From the NCBI GenBank assembly GCA_945905295.1, contig CAMDPX010000006.1:22-64021 (forward strand): a DNA stretch of 64,000 bases, in the 5' to 3' direction. Below, piece after piece: positions 11,118-48,511 of this stretch; position 1 is the first letter of the stretch; each line of letters begins with the position of its first letter. This stretch comes from Planctomyces sp. SH-PL62. Lineage in GTDB: Bacteria; Planctomycetota; Planctomycetia; Planctomycetales; Planctomycetaceae. The notes under the pieces were generated by a model, which saw only the letters and a program-made list of their open reading frames with translations, ran no database searches and had not been told where the DNA came from. The position numbers and the translations under genes were made by a program.

Positions 11118-12530
11118 ATGACTCGCCGGCACTTTCTCGGTCGCGGCATCGGCGCGGCGGCGCTGACGCAATTGCTCGCGCGTAATGGTCTCGCTGGGGA
11201 TGCTGCGAACGATTCGACGGTGCTCGGCCTGCCTCACTTCGCCGCGCGTGCGAAGCGTGTGATCTTCCTGACTCAATCTGGAGGACCATCGCAGCTTGAG
11301 CTCTACGACGAAAAACCGGAGCTGATGAAATGGGCTGGGAAGGAGCTGCCCGATTCGGTGCGTCAGGGTCAGCGACTGACGACCATGACCGCCAGCCAGA
11401 AGCAGCTCGTAATGCCCTCCCGCGCGAGGTTTCGTCGTTGCGGCGAAAGCGGCGCGACGGTGGGTGAGTGGCTGCCGCACTTGGCGAAGGTCGCCGACGA
11501 GTTGTGCTTCATCAAGTCGATGCACACCGATCAGATCAATCACGCGCCCGCCATGACTCAGTTCCTCACCGGCAATCAGATTCCGGGGAAGCCGAGCATC
11601 GGCACCTGGGTCAGCTATGGACTCGGCAGTGAGAACCGCAACCTGCCGGACTACCTGGTGATGATCTCGAAGATGCAGCGGCCGAGCGATCAGCCGCTCT
11701 ACGATCATTACTGGGGGAGCGGCTTTCTGCCGTCCCGTTATCAGGGAGTGAAGCTGCGCAACGCGCGGGAGCCGGTGCTCTATCTTCGCGACCCCGACGG
11801 TGTGCCGCGCGAACTGCGGCGAGGGATGCTCGATGGACTGGCGGAATTGAATCAGCAGCATCTGGCCGAGACCGGTGATCCGGAAATCGCGACGCGCATC
11901 CGGCAGTACGAGATGTCCTATCGCATGCAAACCAGCGTCCCGGAACTGATCGACCTGAGCGACGAGACCGACGCCACGTTTCAGCTTTACGGTCCCGACT
12001 CGCGACGCCCGGGGAGCTACGCGGCGAACTGTATTCTCGCCCGACGACTGGCCGAGCGTGATGTGCGCTTCATCCAACTGTTCCATCCCGACTGGGATCA
12101 TCACAGCCGGTTGCCGTCATGGTGTACCGCTCGGTGCCGCGATGTGGATCAACCGACGGCGGGTCTCATTACCGATCTCAAACAGCGCGGCCTGTTGAAT
12201 GACACGCTCGTGATCTGGGGCGGCGAATTCGGACGAGGCGTCGCAGGACAAGGCCAATGGGATAGTCCCGAAGCGGGGCGTGATCATCATCCGCGATGCT
12301 TCACGATGTGGCTCGCCGGTGGCGGCGTGAAGCCGGGCCTCACCTACGGATCGACGGATGACTTCAGCTACAACACGGCCGAGAACCCGGTTCACGTTCG
12401 CGACCTGCACGCGACCGTGTTGCATTTGCTCGGCATCGACCACGAGCGACTGACGCACCGTTTTCAAGGACTCGATTTCAAGCTGACCGGCGTCGAGCCA
12501 GCTCGCGTGGTGACGGATCTCTTCGCGTGA
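11118..12530 (+). CDS. DUF1501 domain protein (sulfatase-like fold, Tat-type signal)
   Basis: Start chosen at MTRRHFLGRGIGAAAL (twin-Arg); earlier in-frame starts lie inside the palindrome. KSMHTDQINHAPA, WGGEFGR, GRDHHP. Confidence 0.85.
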   Translation: MTRRHFLGRGIGAAALTQLLARNGLAGDAANDSTVLGLPHFAARAKRVIFLTQSGGPSQLELYDEKPELMKWAGKELPDSVRQGQRLTTMTASQKQLVMPSRARFRRCGESGATVGEWLPHLAKVADELCFIKSMHTDQINHAPAMTQFLTGNQIPGKPSIGTWVSYGLGSENRNLPDYLVMISKMQRPSDQPLYDHYWGSGFLPSRYQGVKLRNAREPVLYLRDPDGVPRELRRGMLDGLAELNQQHLAETGDPEIATRIRQYEMSYRMQTSVPELIDLSDETDATFQLYGPDSRRPGSYAANCILARRLAERDVRFIQLFHPDWDHHSRLPSWCTARCRDVDQPTAGLITDLKQRGLLNDTLVIWGGEFGRGVAGQGQWDSPEAGRDHHPRCFTMWLAGGGVKPGLTYGSTDDFSYNTAENPVHVRDLHATVLHLLGIDHERLTHRFQGLDFKLTGVEPARVVTDLFA

Positions 12531-17142: not shown

Positions 17143-20100
17143 TTATCGCTTCACGACGCACTCGTCGTGATTCAGTAATGCTTGAGCCAGCACCGTGGCG
17201 GCGGCCGCTTGAGGAACTGGAATCGTTGTGTCGCGCGGAGTCTGTCCGATCTTCAGAAGTTGCTCGGCCTCAGTCGCGTGCTGCGTGAAGTGATCGAGTT
17301 GCTCGCGATAGAGCTTCGTCACGATCTCCACTTCGCGAGCATCGGGGCGGCGGCTCAAGCAACGCAGGAAACCGTGTTCGATCATCGCCGGCAGTTCGCC
17401 CTTCGCGTCGCGATGCAGAGCTTCTCCGAGTACGCGGGCGGCTTCGACGTATTGGACTCCGTTGAGCAGGATCAAGGCTTGCAGCGGTGAGTCGGTCCGT
17501 TCGCGTTTGGCGATACAGACCGCTCGGCGCGGCGCGTCGAAGGCGACCATTGCTGGTGGCGGTCCCGTGCGACGCCAGTTCGTGTAGAGGCTGCGTCGGA
17601 AGACGCCGTCACCGGCAGTCGGTGCGGCGGGCTTGAACGATTCGCTCATCTCATAAGGGTTCACCGGCGGGCCGCCGAGTTGCCTCTTGAGCAGTCCAGC
17701 CGCCGCGAGTGCGTTGTCGCGAATCATCTCCGCCGGCAATCGGAATCGCGGCCCGCGCGCGAGCCATTCGTTGTCTGGATCGTCGGCCATCGTCTGTGCG
17801 TCAGCGAGACTCCGCTGCCGATACGTCTGGCTGAGGACGATCGTTTTCACGAGCCGCTTCAGATCCCAACCGCTGTCGATGAAGTCGAGCGCCAGCGCAT
17901 CCAACACCTCCGGATAAAGCGGTCGCGCCCCTTGACTGCCGAAGTCTTCCGACGTCTTCACGAGCCCACGTCCGAAGAGGCTCTGCCAAACGCGATTGAC
18001 CGTCACACGAGCCGTCAGTGGATGCCGTCGATCGGTCAACCACTTCGCGAGGCCGAGCCGATTGCGGGGCGCGTCTTCGGGGAACGGAGACAAAGACGCG
18101 GGAGTGCCGGCCTGCACTTCCTCGCGACGTTGCGCGTACTCGCCACGGAAGAGCACATACGCCTTCTTTGGCTGCGGCAGTTCTCGCATCACCATCAGTT
18201 CTTTGATGCCGTCGCCGAGCTTGTTGAGCTCCGCCCGCGCGGTTTGTAACGCGGCGAGGTACACGGCCCATTCGGCATCGGCGGTCGCGAGGTAATAATC
18301 GAAGAGCTTCTCGCGTGTGGCTTGGCGATTCACGACCTCACGAATCTCGTCATCACGCGACACCGCTTCGGCCTCGAGATCCGTTAGCTCACGGCCAAAG
18401 ACCCGGAAGTCGTCGATCATGCCCCCCTTGAACCCGCGATCCCGGAACCGCTCGCCCAGCGAGATGTTGTCGCCACCGCCGCCGGTGATTTCTTTCGTCA
18501 GTTTGTCCTTCACGATCTCGACACCCGGTTGCCGAGCCAAGCGACGACCGTTGATGAACATCTTCAATCCGTCCGCACGGCTGCTGCCGTCCGAAGAGAC
18601 GACGACGTGCATCCATTCGTTGAGCGGCAGCTTGTCCGTGGCTGCGATCGAGACCGCATTGCCCGGCCAAAAATGGATCAGCGACCACTTCAAGCGTCCC
18701 TCTTCGATCAGCAGTTCGTAGCCTCGGCTCCCAGCATCGGTCCACGCTCGCGAGCGATGAAATACGACGGCACGGTCCTTCACATCGGGCGTCTGCAACC
18801 ACAATGCGACCGAGAACGGCTGATGCCGGCCGAAGTTCCCCAGCGGCAAATCGACAGGATCATCGCCAGTGAATTCGATCGCTTGTCCGTCGTGCCCAGA
18901 CACAAGTTTGTTCTCGCCGCGGAGCGTTGCCGGTTGGCCTGATTTCGTTTCGTTGGCAAGCTTCCCTTGATCGACCACATCGAACCGGAAGCGCGCGAGT
19001 TCCCCGATCACACTGGCATTGTTCGTCTTCGTGAGCGGCACGGCGCTAGCCGCCGGTGTTTGCTGAGGACCGGCGGCTAGCGCCTTGCCGCTCACAGGAC
19101 GGCTTCCGCGATTATCAACCTGACGATCAACAAACCACTTGTCGAATGCCTCGCGCCGCGACTCCCGCAGCTTCGGAGCGTGCCGCTCAAGCTCTGCGAC
19201 CTTTTCTTGCAGCACGACCAGACGCTGCTTGGTCGGGACATCGGACAGCGCCAACGTCGGCGTCGGCGGCGACTGCGTGAAGTATGAATACAGCCCCGCC
19301 TCGTCGATGTTCTGGAACATCGCGAAGAGCTGATAATACTCGCGCTGCGAGATCGGATCGTACTTGTGATCGTGGCAGCGGCAGCATTCAAAGGTCAGGC
19401 CGAGGAACGTCGTCGCGAAAGTCTGCACGCGGTCGGCGACGTACTCGACGCGATACTCCTCTTCGACGCTGCCCCCTTCCGACTCTTGCTGGTGCAGGCG
19501 ATTGAAAGCGGTCGCGAGGATCTGCTCGTCGGTGGCGTCCGGCAGCAAGTCACCGGCCAGTTGCCAGGTGATGAATTGATCGAACGGTTGATTGGCGTTG
19601 AACGCCCGCACGACCCAGTCGCGCCACGGCCACATCTCCCGCTCGCGATCGACCTGAAAGCCGTAGCTGTCCGCATACCGCGCGGCGTCGAGCCAATCGG
19701 TCGCCATCCGTTCGCCGTAATGCTCGGACGCCAGCAGCCGATCGACGAGCCGTTCGTTAGCGCCGGGTGCTTGATCATTCAGAAAGGCTTCGACCTCGGC
19801 CGGAGTCGGGGGCAGCCCGGTCAGATCAAAGGTGAGTCGTCGAATGAGCGTCGTGCGATTCGCTTCCGGTTGCAGCCGCAGCCCACGTTTGGCGAGGCTC
19901 CCCTGAATCAAAGCGTCGATGCCCGTCGCGGGACCGGGCTTGAGCGGAATGAGCGACCAATGGTTCTCGTACTCGGCCCCTTGCTCGATCCAGAGTCGCA
20001 GCGTCCCGATTTCCTGCGCCGTGAGTTTGTCGAGCTTCGATGACGACGGCGGCATGTGCTCATCGGCATCCGTACTGAGAATCCGCCGCACGAGTTCGCT

Positions 20101-23794: not shown

Positions 23795-23864
23795 GGCGAG
23801 CCGGAGGGCGTAAGCCCCTGGACGGTCTCTTCGATGTCCGGGGGCTTACGCCCTCCGGCTCGCC
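23795..23864. repeat. REP-like palindromic element, family E (GGCGAGCCGGAGGGCGTAAGCCCC ... GGGGCTTACGCCCTCCGGCTCGCC)
   Basis: Perfect 24-nt arms. Relatives lie at 43315..43392 and 46678..46755. Confidence 0.9.
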
Positions 23865-25516: not shown

Positions 25517-26752
25517 ATGAATTTGCCGCGGACTTGTTGCCAGGTTTTGGCACTGTTGATTGTTCTCGCCGTGACGGATTGCTTCGCCGAGGACGCCAAC
25601 GTGCGCAGAATTCATGCTCAGCCGAGCTTTGTCGTTTCGACGAAGCAGGTGGAGTTGGCAGTCACCGAATTGGGCGGGCATATGGCTCCGGTGTCGTTCT
25701 TCTGTGATTCCGACAAGCCGGTGCGGCCTTACTACGTCAGCCCGTGGCAGGACGAGAAGCCGTTGGCCATGCCGGCTCCAGTGCTGGTGCCGTTGCGCGG
25801 TGACTTCTTCTGTATGCCGTTCGGAGGAAACTCGGACGAGGTCGCCGGTGAAAAACATCCGCCGCATGGCGAGATCGTCGGCGCGAAATGGAAACACATC
25901 GGTACGAAGAAATCGGGGGACGTGACCACGCTGACGATGTCGATCGACACACAGGTGCGTCGTGGCCGAGTCACCAAGGAACTCTCGTTGATCGAGGCTC
26001 AGAACGTGATCTACTCGCGGCACACGATTGACGGCTTTGCCGGTCGCGTGCCGCTCGGACATCACGCGACACTCGCGATGCCCGACAAAGAGGGAACCGT
26101 GCGGCTCGCGGCCAGTCCGTTTCGATTCGGCATGACATATCCCGGCACGTTCAGCGATCCGAAACAGCGGGAGTATCAATCGCTGCTGCCGGGTGCGAAG
26201 TGGACGACGCTGACCAAAGTTTCGCTCGCTTGGAAAGGGGAGCCGGATGCGGATCTCACCAAGTTGCCGGCTCGGCAGGGGTATGCCGATTTGATTCAGC
26301 TCGTGAATGAACCGTGGGAGAAAACAAACGGCCCCGCTTGGATGACCGCGACGTTTACCGAATCCGGATACCTCTGGTTCTCTCTGAAAGATCCGGCCGT
26401 ATTGAGCAGCACGGTCTTCTGGATCGAGAACCACGGCCGCCACGGACATCCCTGGAACGGCCGCAACAATTGCCTCGGGCTCGAAGATGTCACGGCTCAC
26501 TTTGCCGACGGGTTGGCGGCCTCCACTCGCGAGAACATTCTGAGCAAAGAGGGAATCGCCACGTCGATCGAACTGAAGGGGTCGCAGCCGACGACGGTGA
26601 ATTACATCCAAGGGGCGGTCAAAATTCCCGACGGGTTCGAGATGGTCAAGACGCTCGAATTCGCACCGGGACAAGTCACGTTCGTATCAGCAACCGGCCA
26701 GCGTGTGACCGCGCCCGTACGACACGAGTTTTTGAAAACCGGAAAGCTGTAG
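25517..26752 (+). CDS. secreted hypothetical protein
   Basis: ORF trimmed to the ATG at 25517 (MNLPRTCCQVLALLIVLAVTDCFA). Coding-like composition with no motif I can name confidently. Lies just upstream of the sugar ABC transporter genes. Confidence 0.55.
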   Translation: MNLPRTCCQVLALLIVLAVTDCFAEDANVRRIHAQPSFVVSTKQVELAVTELGGHMAPVSFFCDSDKPVRPYYVSPWQDEKPLAMPAPVLVPLRGDFFCMPFGGNSDEVAGEKHPPHGEIVGAKWKHIGTKKSGDVTTLTMSIDTQVRRGRVTKELSLIEAQNVIYSRHTIDGFAGRVPLGHHATLAMPDKEGTVRLAASPFRFGMTYPGTFSDPKQREYQSLLPGAKWTTLTKVSLAWKGEPDADLTKLPARQGYADLIQLVNEPWEKTNGPAWMTATFTESGYLWFSLKDPAVLSSTVFWIENHGRHGHPWNGRNNCLGLEDVTAHFADGLAASTRENILSKEGIATSIELKGSQPTTVNYIQGAVKIPDGFEMVKTLEFAPGQVTFVSATGQRVTAPVRHEFLKTGKL

Positions 26753-40737: not shown

Positions 40738-43176
40738 CTAAGCTAGCGCCGTCGCCTCACCGTCGGATGGCATCGACCACGGAACCCAGACGAGGGCGAC
40801 TTGGCTGATCGTGATGTCAGACTTCTTGGGTTGCAGCGTGACCTCTTCCAATTCGATCGCGGTGGGATCGACGTGAGCGGAGAGCTTCTCGGTTTCGGCT
40901 TTGAATTCCGCCTCGAGCGCGGCCAACCGTTGTTGCACCGCTTCGAGATTTTCTTCGGCGTAACCGATGTCAGTGCGTTCTTTGGCCAGCTTGCCGGCCG
41001 AGCGTGCTGCTGTGGCCGCTTTGCTGACATTGGTCACGCTCAGTGTCCTCTTGCCGAGGAACGCTCCCAGCAGTGACGATCCCACGGTGAGCATCGTCCC
41101 CCAGGTTTGTGACTTGGCTTGTTCTTCTTCTTTGGCTTTACGTTGCTCGGCTTTGCGAAGTTGTTCGTGCAGAGCGGTGACTTTCGGAGCGTATTTCTGA
41201 CGCAGCTTCTCGACGGCGAGGTCGCGCTCCTCGCGCAGCACTTGGCTGAGTCGCGAACGAAAGTCCCCTTCGTTTTCGTCGGCGCGAGAGACCGCCTTCG
41301 GCGATTTGCATTTCCAGACGGTCAAGCGGTGGACTCGATAGAGATGGTCTTTCAACGCTGTAGTCAGAGTCGCGTACTTCTTGGGCTTCGCGAGATCGGC
41401 GGGAAGCGGCGCGAATGCGGCTCCGCCGGCGGGCGTCTTTTCCAAATCAGGCGGGCCATCGTGCGAGAGTTCGCCGTCGTCCCAGGGATCGAGCGAAACT
41501 TCATCGGCGACGGGAGCGAGAATCGAAACCGCGTCCCAGACATCGACGTCGGCTGTCGTCTTTACGAAGTGAGCCTTCGCGATGCCGAGCAGCGCCGGCC
41601 GATAGACGAACTTGTCTCCGGAGTCCGGATCGCGGCGCGCGGGGATGAAGAACTCGACGATGTCTGGTGACAGCACCGGACGATGTTCGCTGACTCCGTC
41701 GGCTGACGCTGAGGCCGTGTCGGCAGTCGTGGTTGAGGAGGTCGGCTGCGACGACTCCCGGCGTGTTCGCATCAGCGAGTCGATCTGGTCTCGCGACAGC
41801 GGGCCGCGCAGATACGACAGCGACCAGCGCGTTTGAAAAATGCTCGGTGCGTCGTCGTGGACGTTGTTCATCACGAAGACTCGCTTGCCGAGTCCTGACA
41901 GGATCGAGTCCATCGCGGATCGGTCGAAGCTGTGTCCCGTTGAAGCGGATGCCCCTTCCAGTCCATCGAGCACGCGGGCTTTGTCCCGCTCGGTCTGCAA
42001 GCGGCCGAGAAACCAGGTGCCGCAGTTCGACAGCCCCTTGTAGTCGAGATCCACCGGGTTCTGCGTTGCGAGCACGATGCCGAGTCCGAACGCGCGAGCT
42101 TGCTTCAGCAGCGTTAGCATCGGGGTCTTCGAGGGCGGGTTCGCGGTTGGTGGGAAATAGCCGAAGACTTCGTCCATGTAGAGCAGACATCGCAAGCTGG
42201 ACGTCCCCGACTGTGACCGCATCCAGGCGAGCACTTCGTTGAGGAAGATCGTCACGAAAAACATCCGCTCGGAATCGGACAGGTGTGAGATCGACATGAT
42301 CGAAAGCCGAGGTTTACCGTCCGCCGTCCAGAGCAGGCGTTGAATGTCGAGCGCTTCCCCTTCCATCCAAGCCGAGAAGCCGGGCGACGCCAGCAAGTTG
42401 TTGAGCGTCATCGCCAGCGTGAAGCGTTCCGTCGCCGGGTAAAACGTGTCGAGGTCCAAAACGCCGACCTTCTTGAACGAAGGCGATTGAATCTCCCGAA
42501 TAAGCTGACCGAGATCGAGGTCTTTCTTCTCGCGCCAGGCACGGTCGAAGATGTTGGTCAGCAAGATCTGCTCGCGGCTGCGGATCGGGTCCGCGTCGAT
42601 GCCGAGCAACGCCAACAAACCGGCCGCCGCGCCGTTGACTCGCTCACGCATCGCGTCGCTGTTGTCGAGCACCGCTTGCGGCGGAGCTCCAAACGACCGC
42701 ACGACCGTCAGCGGCAAACCCGCCTGACTGCCGGGTGTGTAGATCGCGACGTCGCACGCCTCGCGAAACTTCTGGATGCGTGAGCCGTCTTGATCCCACG
42801 CGGCGAGTCCGTCTTTCCAACTCTGCGCCGACTCAGCCGCAAATTGATCGGGCGTTAGGCCGCGCCGTGTCGCCTCAGACGCATCGACCCACGGCCGGAA
42901 GTCGTCAGCCTTCAACTGCGGAAATGTCAGCAGCAGATTTCCGAGGTCTCCTTTCGGATCGATGATGAGCGCGGGGACGCCGTCGATCGCGGCCTCTTCC
43001 AGCAGGCTCAAACACAACCCAGTCTTACCGCTGCCGGTCATACCGACGACGACCGCGTGAGTCGTCAAATCCTTCGCGTCATACAGCAGGTAATCTGGCT
43101 TTGGCTGCTGAGCCGCGAGGTCGAAGTGTTTTCCGAGATAAAAGACTCCGAGTTTTTCATAGTCCTGACTGGGCAT
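40738..43176 (-). CDS. HerA/FtsK-superfamily P-loop ATPase (DUF87-like) with coiled-coil/TM C-terminal region
   Basis: Start at the ATG at 43176 (MPSQDYEKLGVFYLGK). Walker A VVGMTGSGKTG. Walker B LLYMDEVFGYFP. VLATQNPVDLDYKGLSNCGTWFLGRLQTERD. C-terminal EQRKAKEEEQ coiled coil and the hydrophobic stretch TWGTMLTVGSSLLGAFLG. Confidence 0.8.
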   Translation of the reverse strand: MPSQDYEKLGVFYLGKHFDLAAQQPKPDYLLYDAKDLTTHAVVVGMTGSGKTGLCLSLLEEAAIDGVPALIIDPKGDLGNLLLTFPQLKADDFRPWVDASEATRRGLTPDQFAAESAQSWKDGLAAWDQDGSRIQKFREACDVAIYTPGSQAGLPLTVVRSFGAPPQAVLDNSDAMRERVNGAAAGLLALLGIDADPIRSREQILLTNIFDRAWREKKDLDLGQLIREIQSPSFKKVGVLDLDTFYPATERFTLAMTLNNLLASPGFSAWMEGEALDIQRLLWTADGKPRLSIMSISHLSDSERMFFVTIFLNEVLAWMRSQSGTSSLRCLLYMDEVFGYFPPTANPPSKTPMLTLLKQARAFGLGIVLATQNPVDLDYKGLSNCGTWFLGRLQTERDKARVLDGLEGASASTGHSFDRSAMDSILSGLGKRVFVMNNVHDDAPSIFQTRWSLSYLRGPLSRDQIDSLMRTRRESSQPTSSTTTADTASASADGVSEHRPVLSPDIVEFFIPARRDPDSGDKFVYRPALLGIAKAHFVKTTADVDVWDAVSILAPVADEVSLDPWDDGELSHDGPPDLEKTPAGGAAFAPLPADLAKPKKYATLTTALKDHLYRVHRLTVWKCKSPKAVSRADENEGDFRSRLSQVLREERDLAVEKLRQKYAPKVTALHEQLRKAEQRKAKEEEQAKSQTWGTMLTVGSSLLGAFLGKRTLSVTNVSKAATAARSAGKLAKERTDIGYAEENLEAVQQRLAALEAEFKAETEKLSAHVDPTAIELEEVTLQPKKSDITISQVALVWVPWSMPSDGEATALA

Positions 43177-43314
43177 GACGACATCCGATCGGGTGCGAAA
43201 CAAAAAAGTGCGACGGCGATTCTACTGATCGGCGATGTTCGGCCAAGCAGCGAGGCGTTGGCTTGGTGGATGTGTCCGAGTTCAGACTTTAGTCTGTCGG
43301 CTCGCCGTCGAATC

Positions 43315-43392
43315 GGCGAGCCGTCGGGCGTCAGCCCCCGGACGCATTCCGAAACCGCGACTTGTCCGGGAGCTAACGCTGCCCGGCTCGCC
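43315..43392. repeat. REP-like element, family E (GGCGAGCCGTCGGGCGTCAGCCCCCGG ... CCGGGAGCTAACGCTGCCCGGCTCGCC)
   Basis: Imperfect inverted repeat in the divergent spacer. Shares GGCGAGC...GCGTCAGCCCCC with 46678..46755. Confidence 0.8.
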
Positions 43393-43397
43393 GGAGA

Positions 43398-44180
43398 ATG
43401 ACTGAGATGCCCGAATACACTCGCATGGAATTGATGATCTGTTCGGCCGCGCGGTGGCTGGAGGACGGCGCGATGGTCGTCGTCGGCACCGGTGCTCCGT
43501 GTGCGGCGGCGATGTTGGCTCAAAAGACCACCGCGCCGAATCTCACGCTGCTGTTCGAGGCGGGTGGCATCGGACCTCTGTTGCCGAGGATGCCGATCAG
43601 CGTGGGGGACTCGCGGACGTTCTATCGCGGCCTGATGGCGACCAGCATGGCCGACATCATGGAGACGTGTCAGCGCGGCATGGTCGAGTACACGTTTCTT
43701 GGCGGAGCACAAATCGATCGCTTCGGCAATTTGAACTCGACGCAGATTGGTGACGACTATCAGCATCCGAAGGTGCGGTTGCCCGGCAGCGGCGGCGCGA
43801 ACGATCTCGCATCGTTCTGCTGGCGCGTTCTCGTTCTGACTCCGCATGACAAGCGGCGGTTTGTCGAGCGCTGCGATTTCGTCACGACTCCGGGATACCT
43901 GACCGGTCCCGGCGCTCGTGAGGACGCGGGCCTGCCGCCGGGAACTGGGCCGTATAAGGTCATCACCGATTTGGCGGTGCTCGGCTTTGATGACGCGACC
44001 AAGCGGATGCAGGTCGAGTCGCTGCATCCGGGAGTCACTCTGCAAGAGGTCCGCGACCGCACCGGCTTTGAGTTGCTGGTGCGCGACCCGCTCGAAGCGA
44101 CACCGGCTCCGGATCCAACCGCTCTGGAGATTCTGCGGAATGAAGTCGATCCGCAGCGCTACATCATCGGCCGTGGGTGA
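43398..44180 (+). CDS. CoA-transferase beta subunit (glutaconate/3-oxoacid CoA-transferase family B)
   Basis: MELMICSAARWLEDGAMVVVGTGAP, LLFEAGGIG, LPGSGGANDL. No alpha-subunit gene is adjacent. Confidence 0.75.
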   Translation: MTEMPEYTRMELMICSAARWLEDGAMVVVGTGAPCAAAMLAQKTTAPNLTLLFEAGGIGPLLPRMPISVGDSRTFYRGLMATSMADIMETCQRGMVEYTFLGGAQIDRFGNLNSTQIGDDYQHPKVRLPGSGGANDLASFCWRVLVLTPHDKRRFVERCDFVTTPGYLTGPGAREDAGLPPGTGPYKVITDLAVLGFDDATKRMQVESLHPGVTLQEVRDRTGFELLVRDPLEATPAPDPTALEILRNEVDPQRYIIGRG

Positions 44181-44188
44181 GAGCGCTC

Positions 44189-44241
44189 GTAGTGACCCCA
44201 TTCATGGGGGCGAGAGCCGGACCCGATGAATCGGGTCACTA
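44189..44241. repeat. REP-like element (GTAGTGACCCCATTCATGGGG ... CCCGATGAATCGGGTCACTAC)
   Basis: GTAG/CTAC-terminated inverted repeat between convergent genes. Confidence 0.85.
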
Positions 44242-44248
44242 CGAACGC

Positions 44249-45691
44249 TTACGCGAGCAACGCCTCGACCACATTCCCATGCACGTCGGTCAAACGGAAA
44301 TCGCGGCCGGCGTGGTGGAAGGTCAGGCGTTCGTGATCCAGGCCGAGCAGATGCAGGATCGTGGCTTGCAGGTCGTGGACGTGGACTGGGTTCTCGGTGA
44401 TGTGGAAGCCGAGTTCGTCGGTGGTTCCATAGGTCTGGCCGGGCTTGATGCCTCCGCCGGCGAGCCACATCGTGTAAGCCTGCGGGTGATGGTCTCGGCC
44501 GAGACTGCGGCCGAGCGCGGGGTTGGTTTCGACCATCGGCGTGCGACCGAACTCGCCGCCCCAAATCACCAGCGTCTCGTTGAGCAACCCGCGCTGCTTG
44601 AGATCGGTGATGAGCGCGGCACTCGCTTGATCGGTCTTGCCGCAGTTGTTCTTCAAGTTGCCGGCAACGTCCGAATGCGCGTCCCATCCTTCGTTGTAGA
44701 TATTCACGAACCGCACGCCCCGCTCGATCATCCGCCGTGCCAGCAAGCACGCGCGAGCGAACGACGGCTGAGCCGGATCGCAGCCGTACATTTTGAGCGT
44801 CGCTTCCGACTCCGACTTGAGATCCATCAGTTCCGGAGCAGACGTTTGCAGGCGGAACGCCATCTCATACGACGCGATGCGCGTCGCGATTTCGGGATCG
44901 CCTTCTTTCTCCAACCGCGTGCGATTCAACGAGCCGATCAGGTCGAGCGAATCGCGCTGCAACTTGGCATCGATGCCCGGAGGACTCGACACGTTCAGAA
45001 TCGGATCGCCTTGATTGCGGAGGCGGACACCGGTGTAGACGGTCGGCAGGAAGCCGCTCGACCAATTCGCCGCGCCGCCGCTGATGCCGGCTCCGGTGGA
45101 CATCACGACGAATGCGGGCAAGTCGCTGGTCTCGGCACCGAGGCCGTACAAGACCCACGAACCGAGGCTCGGCCGGCCGGGCTGCGAGAAGCCGGTGTTG
45201 AAAAAGATTTGAGCCGGAGCGTGATTGAACTGATCGGTGCGCACCGACTTCACCAGGCAGAGGTCATCCACGATCTTCGCGAGGTGCGGCAGCACTTCAG
45301 AGAGTTCGGTTCCGCATTCTCCATGCTTCGCGAATTTGAATCGCGGTCCCAGGCAATTCGAGTCCGGGCGGATGAAGGCGTATCGCTGGCTGCCGACGAC
45401 TTCGGGAGGGATCGGCTTTCCTTCGTACTCGGCCAGCTTCGGTTTATTGTCAAAGAGGTCGAGCTGGCTTGGAGCTCCAGCCATGAAGAGATGGATGACC
45501 GCCTTGGCCTTACCGTTGAAGTGCGCCTGTCGCGGCGCGAATGAATTCGTATCGCCAGCAACAGCACCACGAGCCATCGCATCGGCCAGCAGGCCACCGA
45601 GCGCGACTTTGCCCACGCCGATTCCGCAGTCGCGAAAGAAATGCCGGCGCGCCACGAGAGGCGAGGAATCAGGTCTCAGCGAAGGGTTCAT
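44249..45691 (-). CDS. DUF1501 domain protein
   Basis: [47 protein letters not shown]. Lies 6 nt downstream of its DUF1553 partner. Confidence 0.9.
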   Translation of the reverse strand: MNPSLRPDSSPLVARRHFFRDCGIGVGKVALGGLLADAMARGAVAGDTNSFAPRQAHFNGKAKAVIHLFMAGAPSQLDLFDNKPKLAEYEGKPIPPEVVGSQRYAFIRPDSNCLGPRFKFAKHGECGTELSEVLPHLAKIVDDLCLVKSVRTDQFNHAPAQIFFNTGFSQPGRPSLGSWVLYGLGAETSDLPAFVVMSTGAGISGGAANWSSGFLPTVYTGVRLRNQGDPILNVSSPPGIDAKLQRDSLDLIGSLNRTRLEKEGDPEIATRIASYEMAFRLQTSAPELMDLKSESEATLKMYGCDPAQPSFARACLLARRMIERGVRFVNIYNEGWDAHSDVAGNLKNNCGKTDQASAALITDLKQRGLLNETLVIWGGEFGRTPMVETNPALGRSLGRDHHPQAYTMWLAGGGIKPGQTYGTTDELGFHITENPVHVHDLQATILHLLGLDHERLTFHHAGRDFRLTDVHGNVVEALLA

Positions 45692-45697
45692 GACAAC

Positions 45698-48412
45698 TCA
45701 TTCCACATACAAGAAGCGATTTGAACTGAGCAGTGATTGGCACAACAGGGCGAACGCCTGCCGAGCTGGATCGGGGGGAGGCGCGGTGTTGGGCGGTATC
45801 GTTGGCGGCGGAGTCTTCGGCCGGAAGACCTCGGTCTGCGCTGTGACGAAGGCGACCGCTTCGGCGGATTCGGCTTCGGTCGGATCGGTTCCGAAGACCA
45901 GTCGCCACGCCAGCACGATTTGCGATTTCACATCCGGTCCGGCGGCGGTGGCGATTCGCTCGGCCAAGGCGTGCGAGTGGTCTTGCACGAACTCGCTGTT
46001 CATCAGGAAGAGCGATTGCGGCGAGACGGTCGAAGAGTTTCGCTGCGGGCAATTCGGGTCGAGCACCGGCGGGTCGAACGGGTCCATCACGCTGAGCGGC
46101 CGGCTGCGACGGACTTGCACGTAGAGACTGCGGCGGAATTCCTCGCCGTTGAGCGGCACGAGTTTGTCGGGGACGCCGTTGCCGTTGATGTTGTCGATGC
46201 CGAGCACGAATTGACCGATCTCGTCCTGCATCACCGGCACTGGTTTGCCGCCGAGTTTGGCGTTCAGCTTGCCGCTGATCGCGAGTGTCGCGTCGCGAAC
46301 TTCCTCGGCCTGCAATCGACGCAACGGAAAGTGACTGAGCAAGCGATTGTCGGGATCAACGGTGTCTGAGGCAGCCGTGCGCGACGACGATTGACGATAG
46401 GCGGTCGACAACAGCATCTGGCGATGAAGCGACTTCAGCCGCCAACCGCTCGCGACGAAATCGTTGGCCAGCCAATCGAGCAGTTCGGGATGCGAAGGCC
46501 GCTCACCTTGCACGCCGAAGTCGGCGGGAGTGCCGACCAAGCCCCGGCCGAAGTGCTGCATCCACACGCGATTCACGAGCACTCGCGCCAGCATCGGGTG
46601 TTGGCCGGTAGTGAGCCAGCGGGCATAGGCGAGACGTCGGCCGCTGGTTGGGAGCGCTGGGTCGTCCACCGGTATCTGGCGAGCGGGGGGCGTCAGCCCC
46701 CCGGTGCTTTGATCGCTGTCTGAAACCACCGGGGTGCTGACGCCCCCCGCTCGCCTGTGAGAAATGCTTTCGGCCAAGATCGTCAACTCGCCAGGCTCGA
46801 GTTGCTGCTTGGGCGCGAAGTGCTCGCCGCGCGAGAACAGAAACGTCGGCGGGATCACGTTCGGCGTTTCGTTGAGGACCATCAGAAACTCTTCCGGAGG
46901 CTTCGTGCCGCGCAGTTCGGTGGCTTGCTTGCTGAAGGCGTTGACCTCTTCCGCCGCCTTTCCGTCGTACAGCGGCAACGTGCCGCCGTTGACGTTGATG
47001 CTGGGGTGATCCTTCAACAACGCTTTTTGTTCGGGCGTCCGTTTGGCCTCTGGCGTGTTGTGAGCCGTTCGCAACGAGTCGCGCAGCTCTTCCGGCTTCT
47101 TGAGGAGTTCACGTTCCAGGATGCGCTGAATGTGTTCGTCGAGTTTCTTCTGGCGATCGGCGTCGATCTTCGCGGCGCTGGCTTCAATCTCGGCCGCCTT
47201 CGTGCGATCGGCGTCGGTGTAGAGCGTCACCAATCTCCCGTTCGGCACACGCCAGTGTTTCCAATCGTAGGCTGGCTCGAAGATCGCGCGGAAGCGGTAG
47301 TAGTCCGCTTGTGTGATTGGGTCGTACCGGTGGTCGTGGCACTGAGAACATCCCAGGCTCAGCCCCAGCAGTGAGGTCGCGACTGTCTTGATCGTTTCCG
47401 CCATCACCGCATTTCGCGCGATGTTTTGATCGACCGCACCGGAAGCGGTGCCGTCGGGAGCCATCCGCAGGAAGCCGGTGGCGGCGAGCTTGTCGAGGTT
47501 CTCCGCCGAGAGGTTCGCGTGCGGCAGCGGCACCAGTTCGTCGCCGGCCAGTTGTTCGAGCAAGAACTCATCGAAGGGCTTGTCGTTGTTGAACGCGCGA
47601 ATCACGTAGTCGCGATACTTGAAGGACCACGCTCGCACCGGGTCTTCGTCGGTATAGCCATCCGAGTCGGCATAGCCGGCGACGTCGAGCCAATGCCGTC
47701 CCCAGCGCTCTCCGTAGCGCGGCGACGCAAGCAGTCGGTCGATCAATCGCTCGAAGGCATCCGGCTCTGAGTCATTGGCGAACTCTTCCACCTCATCGGG
47801 CGTGGGGGGCAGACCGAGCAGGTCCAAGGTCGCTCGGCGAATCAGCGTGCGGCGGTCGGCTTCGGAGGTGAACGAGAGTTGTTTGGCTTCGAACTGCGAC
47901 AGCAAAAACGAATCGATCGGTCTCTCGGCAGGCCGTCGCCCACCGTCTCGCGATGCGAGCGGGATCTGCGGTCGAACAACCGGTTGGAACGCCCAGTGGT
48001 TTCGTTCCTCCGCGGTGAAGAGGCTCTCTTCGGGCCGCTCCGGTTCCGGAGCGGCGATCTTCGCGCCGCCAGCGATCCAGCGACGTAAGAGATCTCGCTC
48101 GGCGGGAGTCAGCTTGCGTTCGACAGGCGGCATCTCGCCAGATTCGATTCGCTTCAGCAATAAACTTTGATCGGGCTGACCGGGGCTGATGGCCGGTCCT
48201 GTCTCGCCACCTTTTTCGAGCAGCCTCTTCAGTCGGACATCGAGCTTTGCTTCGGTCTTGCCCGCTTCACCGTGACATTGAAAACAGTGAGCTTTCAAAA
48301 TCGGACGGACGTGCTTTTCAAACGTCAACTCCGGGGTGTCGGCCGCGAACGCCGACAGCGACGTTGCCATCCAGCACAGCCCCAACAAACTACGAATCGC
48401 AATACGAGTCAT
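45698..48412 (-). CDS. PSCyt1 / DUF1549 / DUF1553 domain protein, secreted
   Basis: Start at the ATG at 48412 (MTRIAIRSLLGLCWMATSLSAFA). FEKHVRPILKAHCFQCHG, RRATLDLLGLPPT, CSQCHDHRYDP. Confidence 0.9.
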   Translation of the reverse strand: MTRIAIRSLLGLCWMATSLSAFAADTPELTFEKHVRPILKAHCFQCHGEAGKTEAKLDVRLKRLLEKGGETGPAISPGQPDQSLLLKRIESGEMPPVERKLTPAERDLLRRWIAGGAKIAAPEPERPEESLFTAEERNHWAFQPVVRPQIPLASRDGGRRPAERPIDSFLLSQFEAKQLSFTSEADRRTLIRRATLDLLGLPPTPDEVEEFANDSEPDAFERLIDRLLASPRYGERWGRHWLDVAGYADSDGYTDEDPVRAWSFKYRDYVIRAFNNDKPFDEFLLEQLAGDELVPLPHANLSAENLDKLAATGFLRMAPDGTASGAVDQNIARNAVMAETIKTVATSLLGLSLGCSQCHDHRYDPITQADYYRFRAIFEPAYDWKHWRVPNGRLVTLYTDADRTKAAEIEASAAKIDADRQKKLDEHIQRILERELLKKPEELRDSLRTAHNTPEAKRTPEQKALLKDHPSINVNGGTLPLYDGKAAEEVNAFSKQATELRGTKPPEEFLMVLNETPNVIPPTFLFSRGEHFAPKQQLEPGELTILAESISHRRAGGVSTPVVSDSDQSTGGLTPPARQIPVDDPALPTSGRRLAYARWLTTGQHPMLARVLVNRVWMQHFGRGLVGTPADFGVQGERPSHPELLDWLANDFVASGWRLKSLHRQMLLSTAYRQSSSRTAASDTVDPDNRLLSHFPLRRLQAEEVRDATLAISGKLNAKLGGKPVPVMQDEIGQFVLGIDNINGNGVPDKLVPLNGEEFRRSLYVQVRRSRPLSVMDPFDPPVLDPNCPQRNSSTVSPQSLFLMNSEFVQDHSHALAERIATAAGPDVKSQIVLAWRLVFGTDPTEAESAEAVAFVTAQTEVFRPKTPPPTIPPNTAPPPDPARQAFALLCQSLLSSNRFLYVE
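46678..46755. repeat. intragenic REP family E element (78 bp) inside the DUF1553 CDS
   Basis: Arms GGCGAGCGGGGGGCGTCAGCCCCCCGGTG and CACCGGGGTGCTGACGCCCCCCGCTCGCC match at 28 of 29 positions. Translated in frame as ...RRAGGVSTPVVSDSDQSTGGLTPPAR... Confidence 0.85.
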
Positions 48413-48511
48413 CTGCAAGTGCTCCCACAAAGGCCATGGGACACTGTAAATGCCGTCGACGGGGCATGACAGTCCTCGACTTGTCTGCCTGCTGACCCGC
48501 CCCGGTACGCC

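Follow-up and report, generated by a model that had tools for sequence, protein, structure and literature searches.

Repetitive extragenic palindromic (REP) sequences paired as REP doublets forming hairpins (REPINs) have, to our knowledge, been described as essentially extragenic. In REPIN/REP-associated tyrosine transposase (RAYT) systems, two inverted REPs form a hairpin of about 70–100 nt that is present in hundreds of copies (Bertels & Rainey 2011; Nunvar et al. 2010), the REPs and bacterial interspersed mosaic elements (BIMEs) of enterobacteria fill shared intergenic sites with sequences that differ between species (Gilson, Bachellier and colleagues), and the Rickettsia palindromic elements (RPEs; Ogata et al. 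2000) are about 100–150 bp long, each family encoding one conserved peptide in one frame. Nearly half of the Rickettsia RPEs lie in frame within genes according to a review of miniature inverted-repeat transposable elements (PMC10969869). REP dimers have variable spacers, and those that are intragenic encode 20–30 residues, with uvrA as a repeated host; multiple REP families together with tyrosine transposases were found in a planctomycete, and both Planctomycetes and Verrucomicrobia were named as carriers (Di Nocera, De Gregorio & Rocco 2013, PMC3733652). Here, we describe a 78-nt palindrome of a repeat family termed family E, which is translated as part of a gene in the window, i.e. the whole 64,000-nt stretch of DNA analysed from Planctomyces sp. 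SH-PL62 (GCA_945905295.1, contig CAMDPX010000006.1, positions 22 to 64,021; C6:22-64021 in our numbering of the contigs). The palindrome, a copy of a REP-dimer/REPIN-like element, probably entered the linker between the DUF1549 and DUF1553 domains of the host protein in a recent ancestor of this genome and of a relative with 94% identity, and has since been carried as a translated passenger.

The palindrome and its host gene

The host gene (45698..48412, minus strand, ATG at 48412) encodes a 904-aa protein with a PSCyt1-PSCyt2(DUF1549)-PSD1(DUF1553) architecture, in which Pfam places PSCyt1 at residues 49–103, PSCyt2/DUF1549 at 171–386 and PSD1/DUF1553 at 598–861. The stop-to-stop open reading frame (ORF; 45698-48430, minus strand) spans 910 aa, and an identical public protein (P0002) is recorded with 904 aa. 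The 78-nt palindrome that an initial annotation of the window had placed at 46678-46755 was recovered by arm detection as well as by a 29-nt arm pattern, which had a single match per strand (0 and 1 mismatch, respectively) and no match in any of 100 shuffles. It comprises two 28-nt arms with 1 mismatch and a 22-nt loop, and repeat finding returned it as two 33-nt arms (46678-46710 and 46723-46755) lying 12 nt apart with 94% complementarity. On the plus strand, the left arm (46678..46705) is followed by the loop or spacer (46706..46727) and by the right arm (46728..46755), an inverted copy of the left one. Direct reading of the left arm reveals a small hairpin of its own (GGGGGGC at 46685-46691, GTCA at 46692-46695 and GCCCCCC at 46696-46702), and as each arm contains such a hairpin, each represents a REP-like unit. 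Read on the gene strand, the palindrome has the form GGCGAGCGGGGGGCGTCAGCACCCCGGT-loop-ACCGGGGGGCTGACGCCCCCCGCTCGCC, and its predicted RNA fold is a single hairpin of −72.1 kcal/mol (z = −10).

In the minus-strand ORF the element is translated without a stop as ...ISH RRAGGVSTPVVSDSDQSTGGLTPPARQ IPVDDP..., ending 13 residues ahead of PSD1, where RRAGGVSTPVVSDSDQSTGGLTPPARQ corresponds to residues 559–585 of the 910-aa ORF and 553–579 of the 904-aa protein. The in-frame reading of the palindrome proposed in the initial annotation therefore stands, but its count of exactly 26 codons does not, as the 78 nt start at codon position 2 and touch 27 codons. The encoded segment of 27 residues is rich in Gly, Pro, Ser and Thr. 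The initial annotation had placed it between conserved DUF1553 blocks; the segment is found in the linker between PSCyt2/DUF1549 and PSD1/DUF1553 and thus outside DUF1553 proper. In the AlphaFold model of the host protein (mean predicted local distance difference test score, pLDDT, 53.5), the insert falls within a stretch scoring below 50 (residues 507–593).

Orthologues, empty alleles and selection

Orthologues were searched with the C-terminal half of the protein (residues 400–910), to which the identities given here refer; 22 of them were aligned, and the linker states were also compared at the DNA level. The closest orthologue, P0003 (locus L009, 94% identity), has the element. P0004-P0008 and L013 (87–89%; for P0004-P0008 88–89%, and 89–92% over the full length) instead read AES-RKPIAESRQPN-ILPDDP with an 11-residue linker, and the next clade (P0012, P0014/L071, P0015 and L018, 81–83%) shows RKPMAENRQPN and variants thereof, so that P0004-P0008 and most of the next clade share a homologous empty-allele motif, RKP[IM]AE[SN]RQPN. 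P0009 (L011/L014, 83%) carries a family-E element of identical length, phase and position, and in L015 (80%) this linker holds a 78-nt palindrome from another family (GTGGGGCAGGTTTCCAACC...). In more distant orthologues of lower identity, the linkers are unrelated and about 2–34 residues long.

A maximum likelihood (ML) tree calculated with the linker masked placed the pair formed by our genome and P0003 as sister to the empty P0005, nested among lineages with the RKP state, and the element is consequently a lineage-specific gain. In the same tree, P0009 was sister to P0014 and L015 to P0015, both empty, and its well-supported branches require the family-E state to have been gained at least twice. 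The alignment, the linkers at the DNA level and the tree thus agree with the original proposal that the segment is an insertion and not ancestral. The paralogues in the window, which had been put forward as lacking the segment, do lack it, but they are uninformative as an insertion test since they are only 32–36% identical and have a different, larger middle region that cannot be aligned.

Compared to the empty allele, 33 nt are replaced by 90 nt (10 nt, the 78-nt palindrome and 2 nt), which on balance lengthens the gene by 57 nt (19 codons). The conserved ...AES is separated from the element by a 10-nt junction (46756..46765, minus strand; ATTTCTCACA on the gene strand), which consists of the codons for ISH and one further nucleotide. 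This junction bears no relation to the 33-nt sequence of the empty allele, and 7 of its 10 positions differ from the P0003 orthologue. A 9-mer (CGTCAGCCC) common to the empty allele of L010 and the arm core was considered as a relic or a microhomology target, and was attributed to chance as it occurs in L010 alone and not in L013, L071 or L018. In L015 (9705-9866; a metagenome-assembled genome (MAG) labelled Kuenenia, probably mislabelled), the palindrome GTGGGGCAGGTTTCCAACCTACCC...GGGCAGGTTGGAAACCTGCCCCAC, translated as VGQVSNLPGQSLSVAAPAGQVGNLPH, stands in place of 51 nt of the ancestral linker. In P0015, the linker ahead of PSCyt2 is longer by a segment of about 40 residues (PLGECGRRPSEG...LTLALSQGERG; alignment A2 columns 230–275) that resembles the translation of a palindrome from a further family; the IPLASRDGGRRPAERP found at this site in our own clade may be a remnant of that segment.

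Selection was assessed by comparing our genome to L009 (the P0003 orthologue), both of which bear the element. The ratio of nonsynonymous to synonymous substitution rates (dN/dS) of the host gene was 0.10 upstream of the insert (dS 0.28) and 0.10 downstream of it (dS 0.28), showing that both halves are still functional and under purifying selection. The insert together with three junction codons displayed 9 nonsynonymous changes and 1 synonymous change, which indicates no constraint on the encoded peptide. The arms differed at 1 of 56 positions, compared to 18% of 439 four-fold sites (binomial P = 2e-4), and the loop at 2 of 22. A similar pattern was seen in 15 orthologous copies shared with metagenome relatives, in which arms were 94.5%, loops 63% and the mostly coding flanks 86.7% identical; among the six shared copies in genes, arms were approximately 98% identical and the flanking coding DNA 80–92%. 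In 12 of 15 pairs, loop similarity was higher when the two copies were compared in syntenic orientation, and loop pairs of equal length mostly lay above the 95th percentile of random pairs, from which descent of the shared copies from common ancestral ones follows. We infer that what keeps the arms constant is either concerted evolution through gene conversion with hundreds of copies or a constraint at the DNA or RNA level (hairpin or protein recognition).

A 480-aa partner ORF (44249..45691, minus strand) begins 6 nt past the stop of the host gene, and its counterparts in L009 and L010 were assigned to DUF1501 (PF07394). In the clade of P0009 and P0014 the DUF1553 gene has no DUF1501 partner downstream. 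In the P0009 locus (L011:5730-6317), a gene of the Uma2 family (PF05685) is located between the DUF1553 gene and thiG, and is absent from the syntenic P0014 locus (L012).

Family E across the genome

A strict search of the whole assembly (8.6 Mb in 476 contigs, 59.8% G+C) for palindromic arms with the termini GGCGAGC...GCTCGCC gave 240 copies with the consensus YW-GGCGAGCGGGGCGGCGTCAGCCCCCCGGT-loop-ACCGGGGGGCTGACGCCGCCCCGCTCGCC-WR. A BLAST census found 921 arms and 308 inverted pairs, with no arm pairs in the opposite order, and 206 of the 305 unpaired arms were located at contig ends. As family-E arms end 224 of the 952 contig ends (e.g. C100:22-50, C101:12-40 and 25597-25625), the true copy number must be higher, and the repeat is a main cause of assembly breaks. 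Each 28–29-nt arm holds GGGG(C)GGC-GTCA-GCCCCCC, forming a stem of 7–8 bp with a 4-nt loop. Lengths peak at 72 and 78 nt, each class having a semi-conserved loop (GTGCATTCGCCGCAGGAC and GTGGTCACGATGGCCGCTGAAAAC, respectively) that occurs in both orientations, and the focal loop is a member of the 78-nt class. That the loops might be host DNA trapped between two separately inserted arms was ruled out by this shared consensus of the 72- and 78-nt classes in either orientation; removing the arms from the focal copy also leaves nothing convincingly like the empty site.

No direct repeat above chance, as expected of a target-site duplication, was detected at offsets of 0–3 for 233 copies, and none of the 13 Y1-transposase (PF01797) genes in the assembly, whose 476 contigs break at these very repeats, has a family-E arm within 2 kb. 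Seven inverted arm pairs in this fragmentary assembly are more widely spaced (175–955 nt apart), too short for a typical transposase gene. The GTAG/CGTC end tag was not found at the termini, which read YW-GGCGAGC, with CGTC present solely in the loop of the small hairpin. Rfam returned nothing above the gathering score, the sub-threshold matches resembling miRNA precursors being generic hairpins. An exact-pattern scan of metagenome contigs gave at least 120 stretches, many from the lake studies that also provided the closest MAGs, which are labelled Planctomyces sp. or Planctomycetaceae.

The initial annotation had assigned the focal palindrome to the same type as two intergenic copies at 23795 and 43315. 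All three belong to the same superfamily, but these two copies are members of a different, sister subfamily (arms GGCGAGCCGGAGGGCGT[A/C]AGCCCC.GGAC), and the second one starts at 43314. The first (23795..23864; arms GGCGAGCCGGAGGGCGTAAGCCCCTGGAC) is intergenic; the second (43314..43393), located just upstream of a plus-strand ORF (43398-44180; a CoA-transferase in the orthologous locus L009), is read as intergenic because the minus-strand ORF that spans it (43065-44201) failed the codon-usage test described below. Look-alikes of family-E hairpins with a GGCGTCAGCC core also exist in other genomes, and chimeric arrangements at C12:48773-49164, C1:1168 and C221 join a family-E arm to ...CCAATGGCACTCACTTTG-GTGAGCGGCACGGCGCTAGCCGCCGGT, a family present at position 19031 of the window.

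Copies were called genic by a conservative rule that requires an ORF extending at least 60 codons to each side with coding-like usage on both sides, as scored by codon-usage log-odds trained on 613 ORFs of at least 800 codons. Host status otherwise rests on Pfam for the focal gene and five more hosts, and on BLAST-named matches for UvrA. By this measure, 73 of the 240 strict copies and at least 95 of 288 testable pairs are genic; as random 78-nt windows pass the same test in 716 of 1500 cases, genic copies are only mildly depleted (33% vs 48%). Pfam located the copy between the two B12-binding domains of MetH, at the end of domain III of a phosphoglucomutase, between domains of a C-methyltransferase, and inside a domain, which it splits, in an ArgZ-like enzyme; an AcrB transporter was the fifth further host confirmed in this way. 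The UvrA gene (C38:17792-20281) holds two 95-nt copies in frame. Its stop-to-stop ORF leaves the UvrA frame near the 3' end, which could reflect a frameshift or an assembly problem. A homologue search for empty UvrA sites gave only relatives with at most 59–60% identity, too distant for a DNA-level comparison. Other DUF1553 paralogues contain family-E copies at different positions. Two paralogous 854-aa proteins (C1:83827 and C47:3422) have a copy of subfamily E2 at the same position, due either to an insertion before the duplication or to gene conversion between them. Several hosts (the C68 AcrB, C127 and C29) contain two or more translated palindromes, in some cases from different families, such as an AcrB homologue with LASGGRQPPG... 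plus another segment and a hybrid kinase with VGHVSNVPG...NGQVDNLPNE.

In genes, translation uses every one of the three frames of the left arm (GERGGVSPPV, xRAGGVSPPV, xASGAASAPR and xASGGRQPPG) and, in the right arm, the two frames that avoid TGA (..GLTPPRSP/..GLTPPARx and ..GADAAPLA), with at least seven frame combinations among the 73 genic copies. The encoded peptides consist to about 63% of P, G, S, A and T, with P, G, S, A, R and T as the prevailing residues. A terminus-to-terminus length divisible by three, which the initial annotation had suggested checking in other intragenic copies, is no rule: 35 of the 73 genic copies are 0 mod 3, 29 are 2 mod 3 and 9 are 1 mod 3, and the share of multiples of three is about equal in the non-genic copies. 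Several frames of the arms are free of stops, and differences in phase are taken up at the junctions.

The insertion sites themselves turn over between relatives, as seen from 30 sites with a copy in a metagenome relative and, for the reverse comparison, from 52 flank-hit pairs. In many cases the counterpart site was occupied by a palindrome of a different family, both between and inside genes (e.g. at C2:91993 and C263:7590, both in DUF1553 paralogues, and in C260). Partial deletions of family-E copies leave only the terminal 11–14 nt of one arm (CCCCGCTCGCC or GCCCCCCGCTCGCC), as at C234:~12064-12105 compared to L163:4104-4187 and in L145 compared to C16:31994, and such solo arm remnants may be common. 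Between relatives, the loops of copies in genes vary by indels of 15 and 21 nt that keep the frame. This turnover and the fact that the focal linker was filled three times suggest that tolerant sites are few and would be hit again and again as copies are gained and lost at a high rate; a targeted replacement mechanism may also operate at such sites.

Origin of the insert and comparison to known systems

A copy of the abundant hairpin-forming repeat would have landed in the variable DUF1549-DUF1553 linker, and its insertion would have been accompanied or followed by the loss of about 33 nt of the old linker. With no stop in the frame used and a net gain of 57 nt, the host ORF is preserved across the element, which is translated. 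The copy would then be a tolerated passenger in a length-variable surface linker, having presumably survived because it landed in one of the few places in the gene where an insertion is harmless. Several points weigh against this account. The disappearance of the 33 nt of the empty allele means that simple cut-and-paste or copy-in insertion describes the event incompletely, and a second lineage (P0009/L014), the sisters of which are empty, has an element that agrees in length, phase, arm variant and position, which chance explains poorly. The strong conservation of the arms inside the gene is unexpected for a neutral passenger, unless gene conversion acts. The AlphaFold model (pLDDT 53.5) is too poor to place the loop on the surface, and with no link to a transposase found in the assembly, mobility is deduced from the distribution alone. 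The agreement between the two lineages might be explained by a single insertion followed by movement of the patch by homologous recombination between P0009/L014 and the pair of our genome and P0003, or by a site-specific exchange of linker for element, a scenario that we consider possible though not probable. In both lineages the element is found 10 nt past GAA[A/C]GC and directly ahead of AG-ATA, in the same phase, with the same 78-nt length and with the same 28-nt arm variant in both arms; the third lineage, L015, has likewise replaced the linker by a 78-nt palindrome, of a different family, and many orthologous sites hold palindromes of different families in relatives. However, the flanks follow the species tree up to the junction, P0009 resembling P0014 and not our genome, and the tree needs at least two state changes on well-supported branches. 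Approximately 12 of 22 loop positions match (by eye), near the mean of 0.54 for random family pairs, and the 10-nt junctions agree at only 5 of 10 positions. It is very improbable that the segment was instead ancestral to the orthologue group and lost in most lineages: family-E deletions with terminal remnants (CCCCGCTCGCC) do occur at other sites, but the empty alleles of both clades share the homologous 33-nt linker that is missing from the element-bearing alleles, making independent deletions impossible as their origin, and outgroups have unrelated linkers. Hardly conceivable is an artefact of assembly or gene calling, in which the palindrome was mis-joined into the gene at a repeat. Although the presence of family-E arms at 224 of 952 contig ends shows that the repeat does disturb assembly, the identical protein is recorded on three contigs, L009, from an independent ENA assembly, shows the same arrangement, as do L011 and L014, and on either side of the element codon usage and dN/dS resemble those of a gene; the exact protein on three contigs and the element in two independently assembled relatives thus speak against an assembly artefact.

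The conservation of the arms could alternatively mean that the element is a functional module whose arms are selected directly, as DNA or RNA, and which acts as a putative ribosome-pausing hairpin at a domain boundary or as a putative site for protein binding or cleavage, with genic copies kept because they are useful. We regard this as unlikely, even though the arms of the focal copy differ at only 1 of 56 positions against a neutral divergence of 18% in the same gene pair and those of the six shared genic copies are about 98% identical between flanks of 80–92% identity. The fold of −72 kcal/mol, the position between domains or at a domain edge in 5 of the 6 hosts checked with Pfam (the ArgZ-like enzyme being the exception) and the mild depletion of genic copies (33% vs 48%) would also suit such a role. 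On the other hand, the arms of intergenic copies are equally conserved, and ectopic gene conversion among hundreds of identical copies is sufficient to account for this; furthermore, the hosts are unrelated in function, close orthologues manage without the element, and the palindromes of other families that fill the same sites in relatives suggest tolerant sites and not a specific function. There is similarly only a small chance that family-E hairpins in general are not inert, whether through a targeted insertion that replaces the spacer or through a selected role of strong hairpins at domain boundaries (putative pausing or protein-binding sites). This proposal arises because the arms remain constant in genes while the peptide drifts, and because the linker was refilled by palindromes three times in close relatives with the old linker lost each time. 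The insertion of a passenger into a tolerant linker remains our preferred interpretation of the focal copy.

The colonisation of genes by palindromes in frame is already known from Rickettsia and from REP surveys, but is here of an unusually large scale, with at least 95 genic copies of one family, corresponding to about a third of the testable copies and including the core genes metH, uvrA and acrB. The repeats fragment assemblies, with arms at a quarter of contig ends, and they add "low-complexity" segments rich in G, P, S and T to predicted planctomycete proteins, which can mislead analyses of domains and orthology. With conserved arms, a drifting peptide and recurrent occupation of one linker, the locus is a tractable case for deciding between gene conversion, structural selection and targeted insertion as what maintains such repeats.

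The entry of family E into genes is the same kind of event as that of the Rickettsia RPEs and the intragenic REP dimers. Like the GTAG/CGTC REP dimers (PMC3733652), family E consists of short palindromes arranged as inverted dimers that form one long hairpin with spacers varying in sequence and length, and both have a minority of genic copies, with uvrA and other repair genes among the hosts. In contrast to those REPs, however, the family-E termini are GGCGAGC...GCTCGCC with YW/WR tails and without GTAG/CGTC, the stems are all-G/C whereas CGTC-type REPs have A/T at the first stem positions, and the genic share is very high, at one third or more (PMC3733652 for the REP side of each comparison). 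With REPINs, family E shares the inverted paired units, the long hairpin, the hundreds of copies and the homogeneity of arms within a genome, and it differs from them in that 0 of 13 Y1-transposase genes have a family-E arm within 2 kb and in that it is also intragenic. As with BIMEs, orthologous sites in relatives hold different types of palindrome, but the turnover of family-E sites also takes place in frame within coding sequence. Compared by description to the RPEs, which are found in housekeeping genes, family E likewise places in-frame palindromes in unrelated genes and adds a peptide without destroying the protein; unlike the RPEs, it is shorter than about 100–150 bp, its left arm is read in three frames and its right arm in two where an RPE uses one, and its host is a free-living planctomycete with a large genome.

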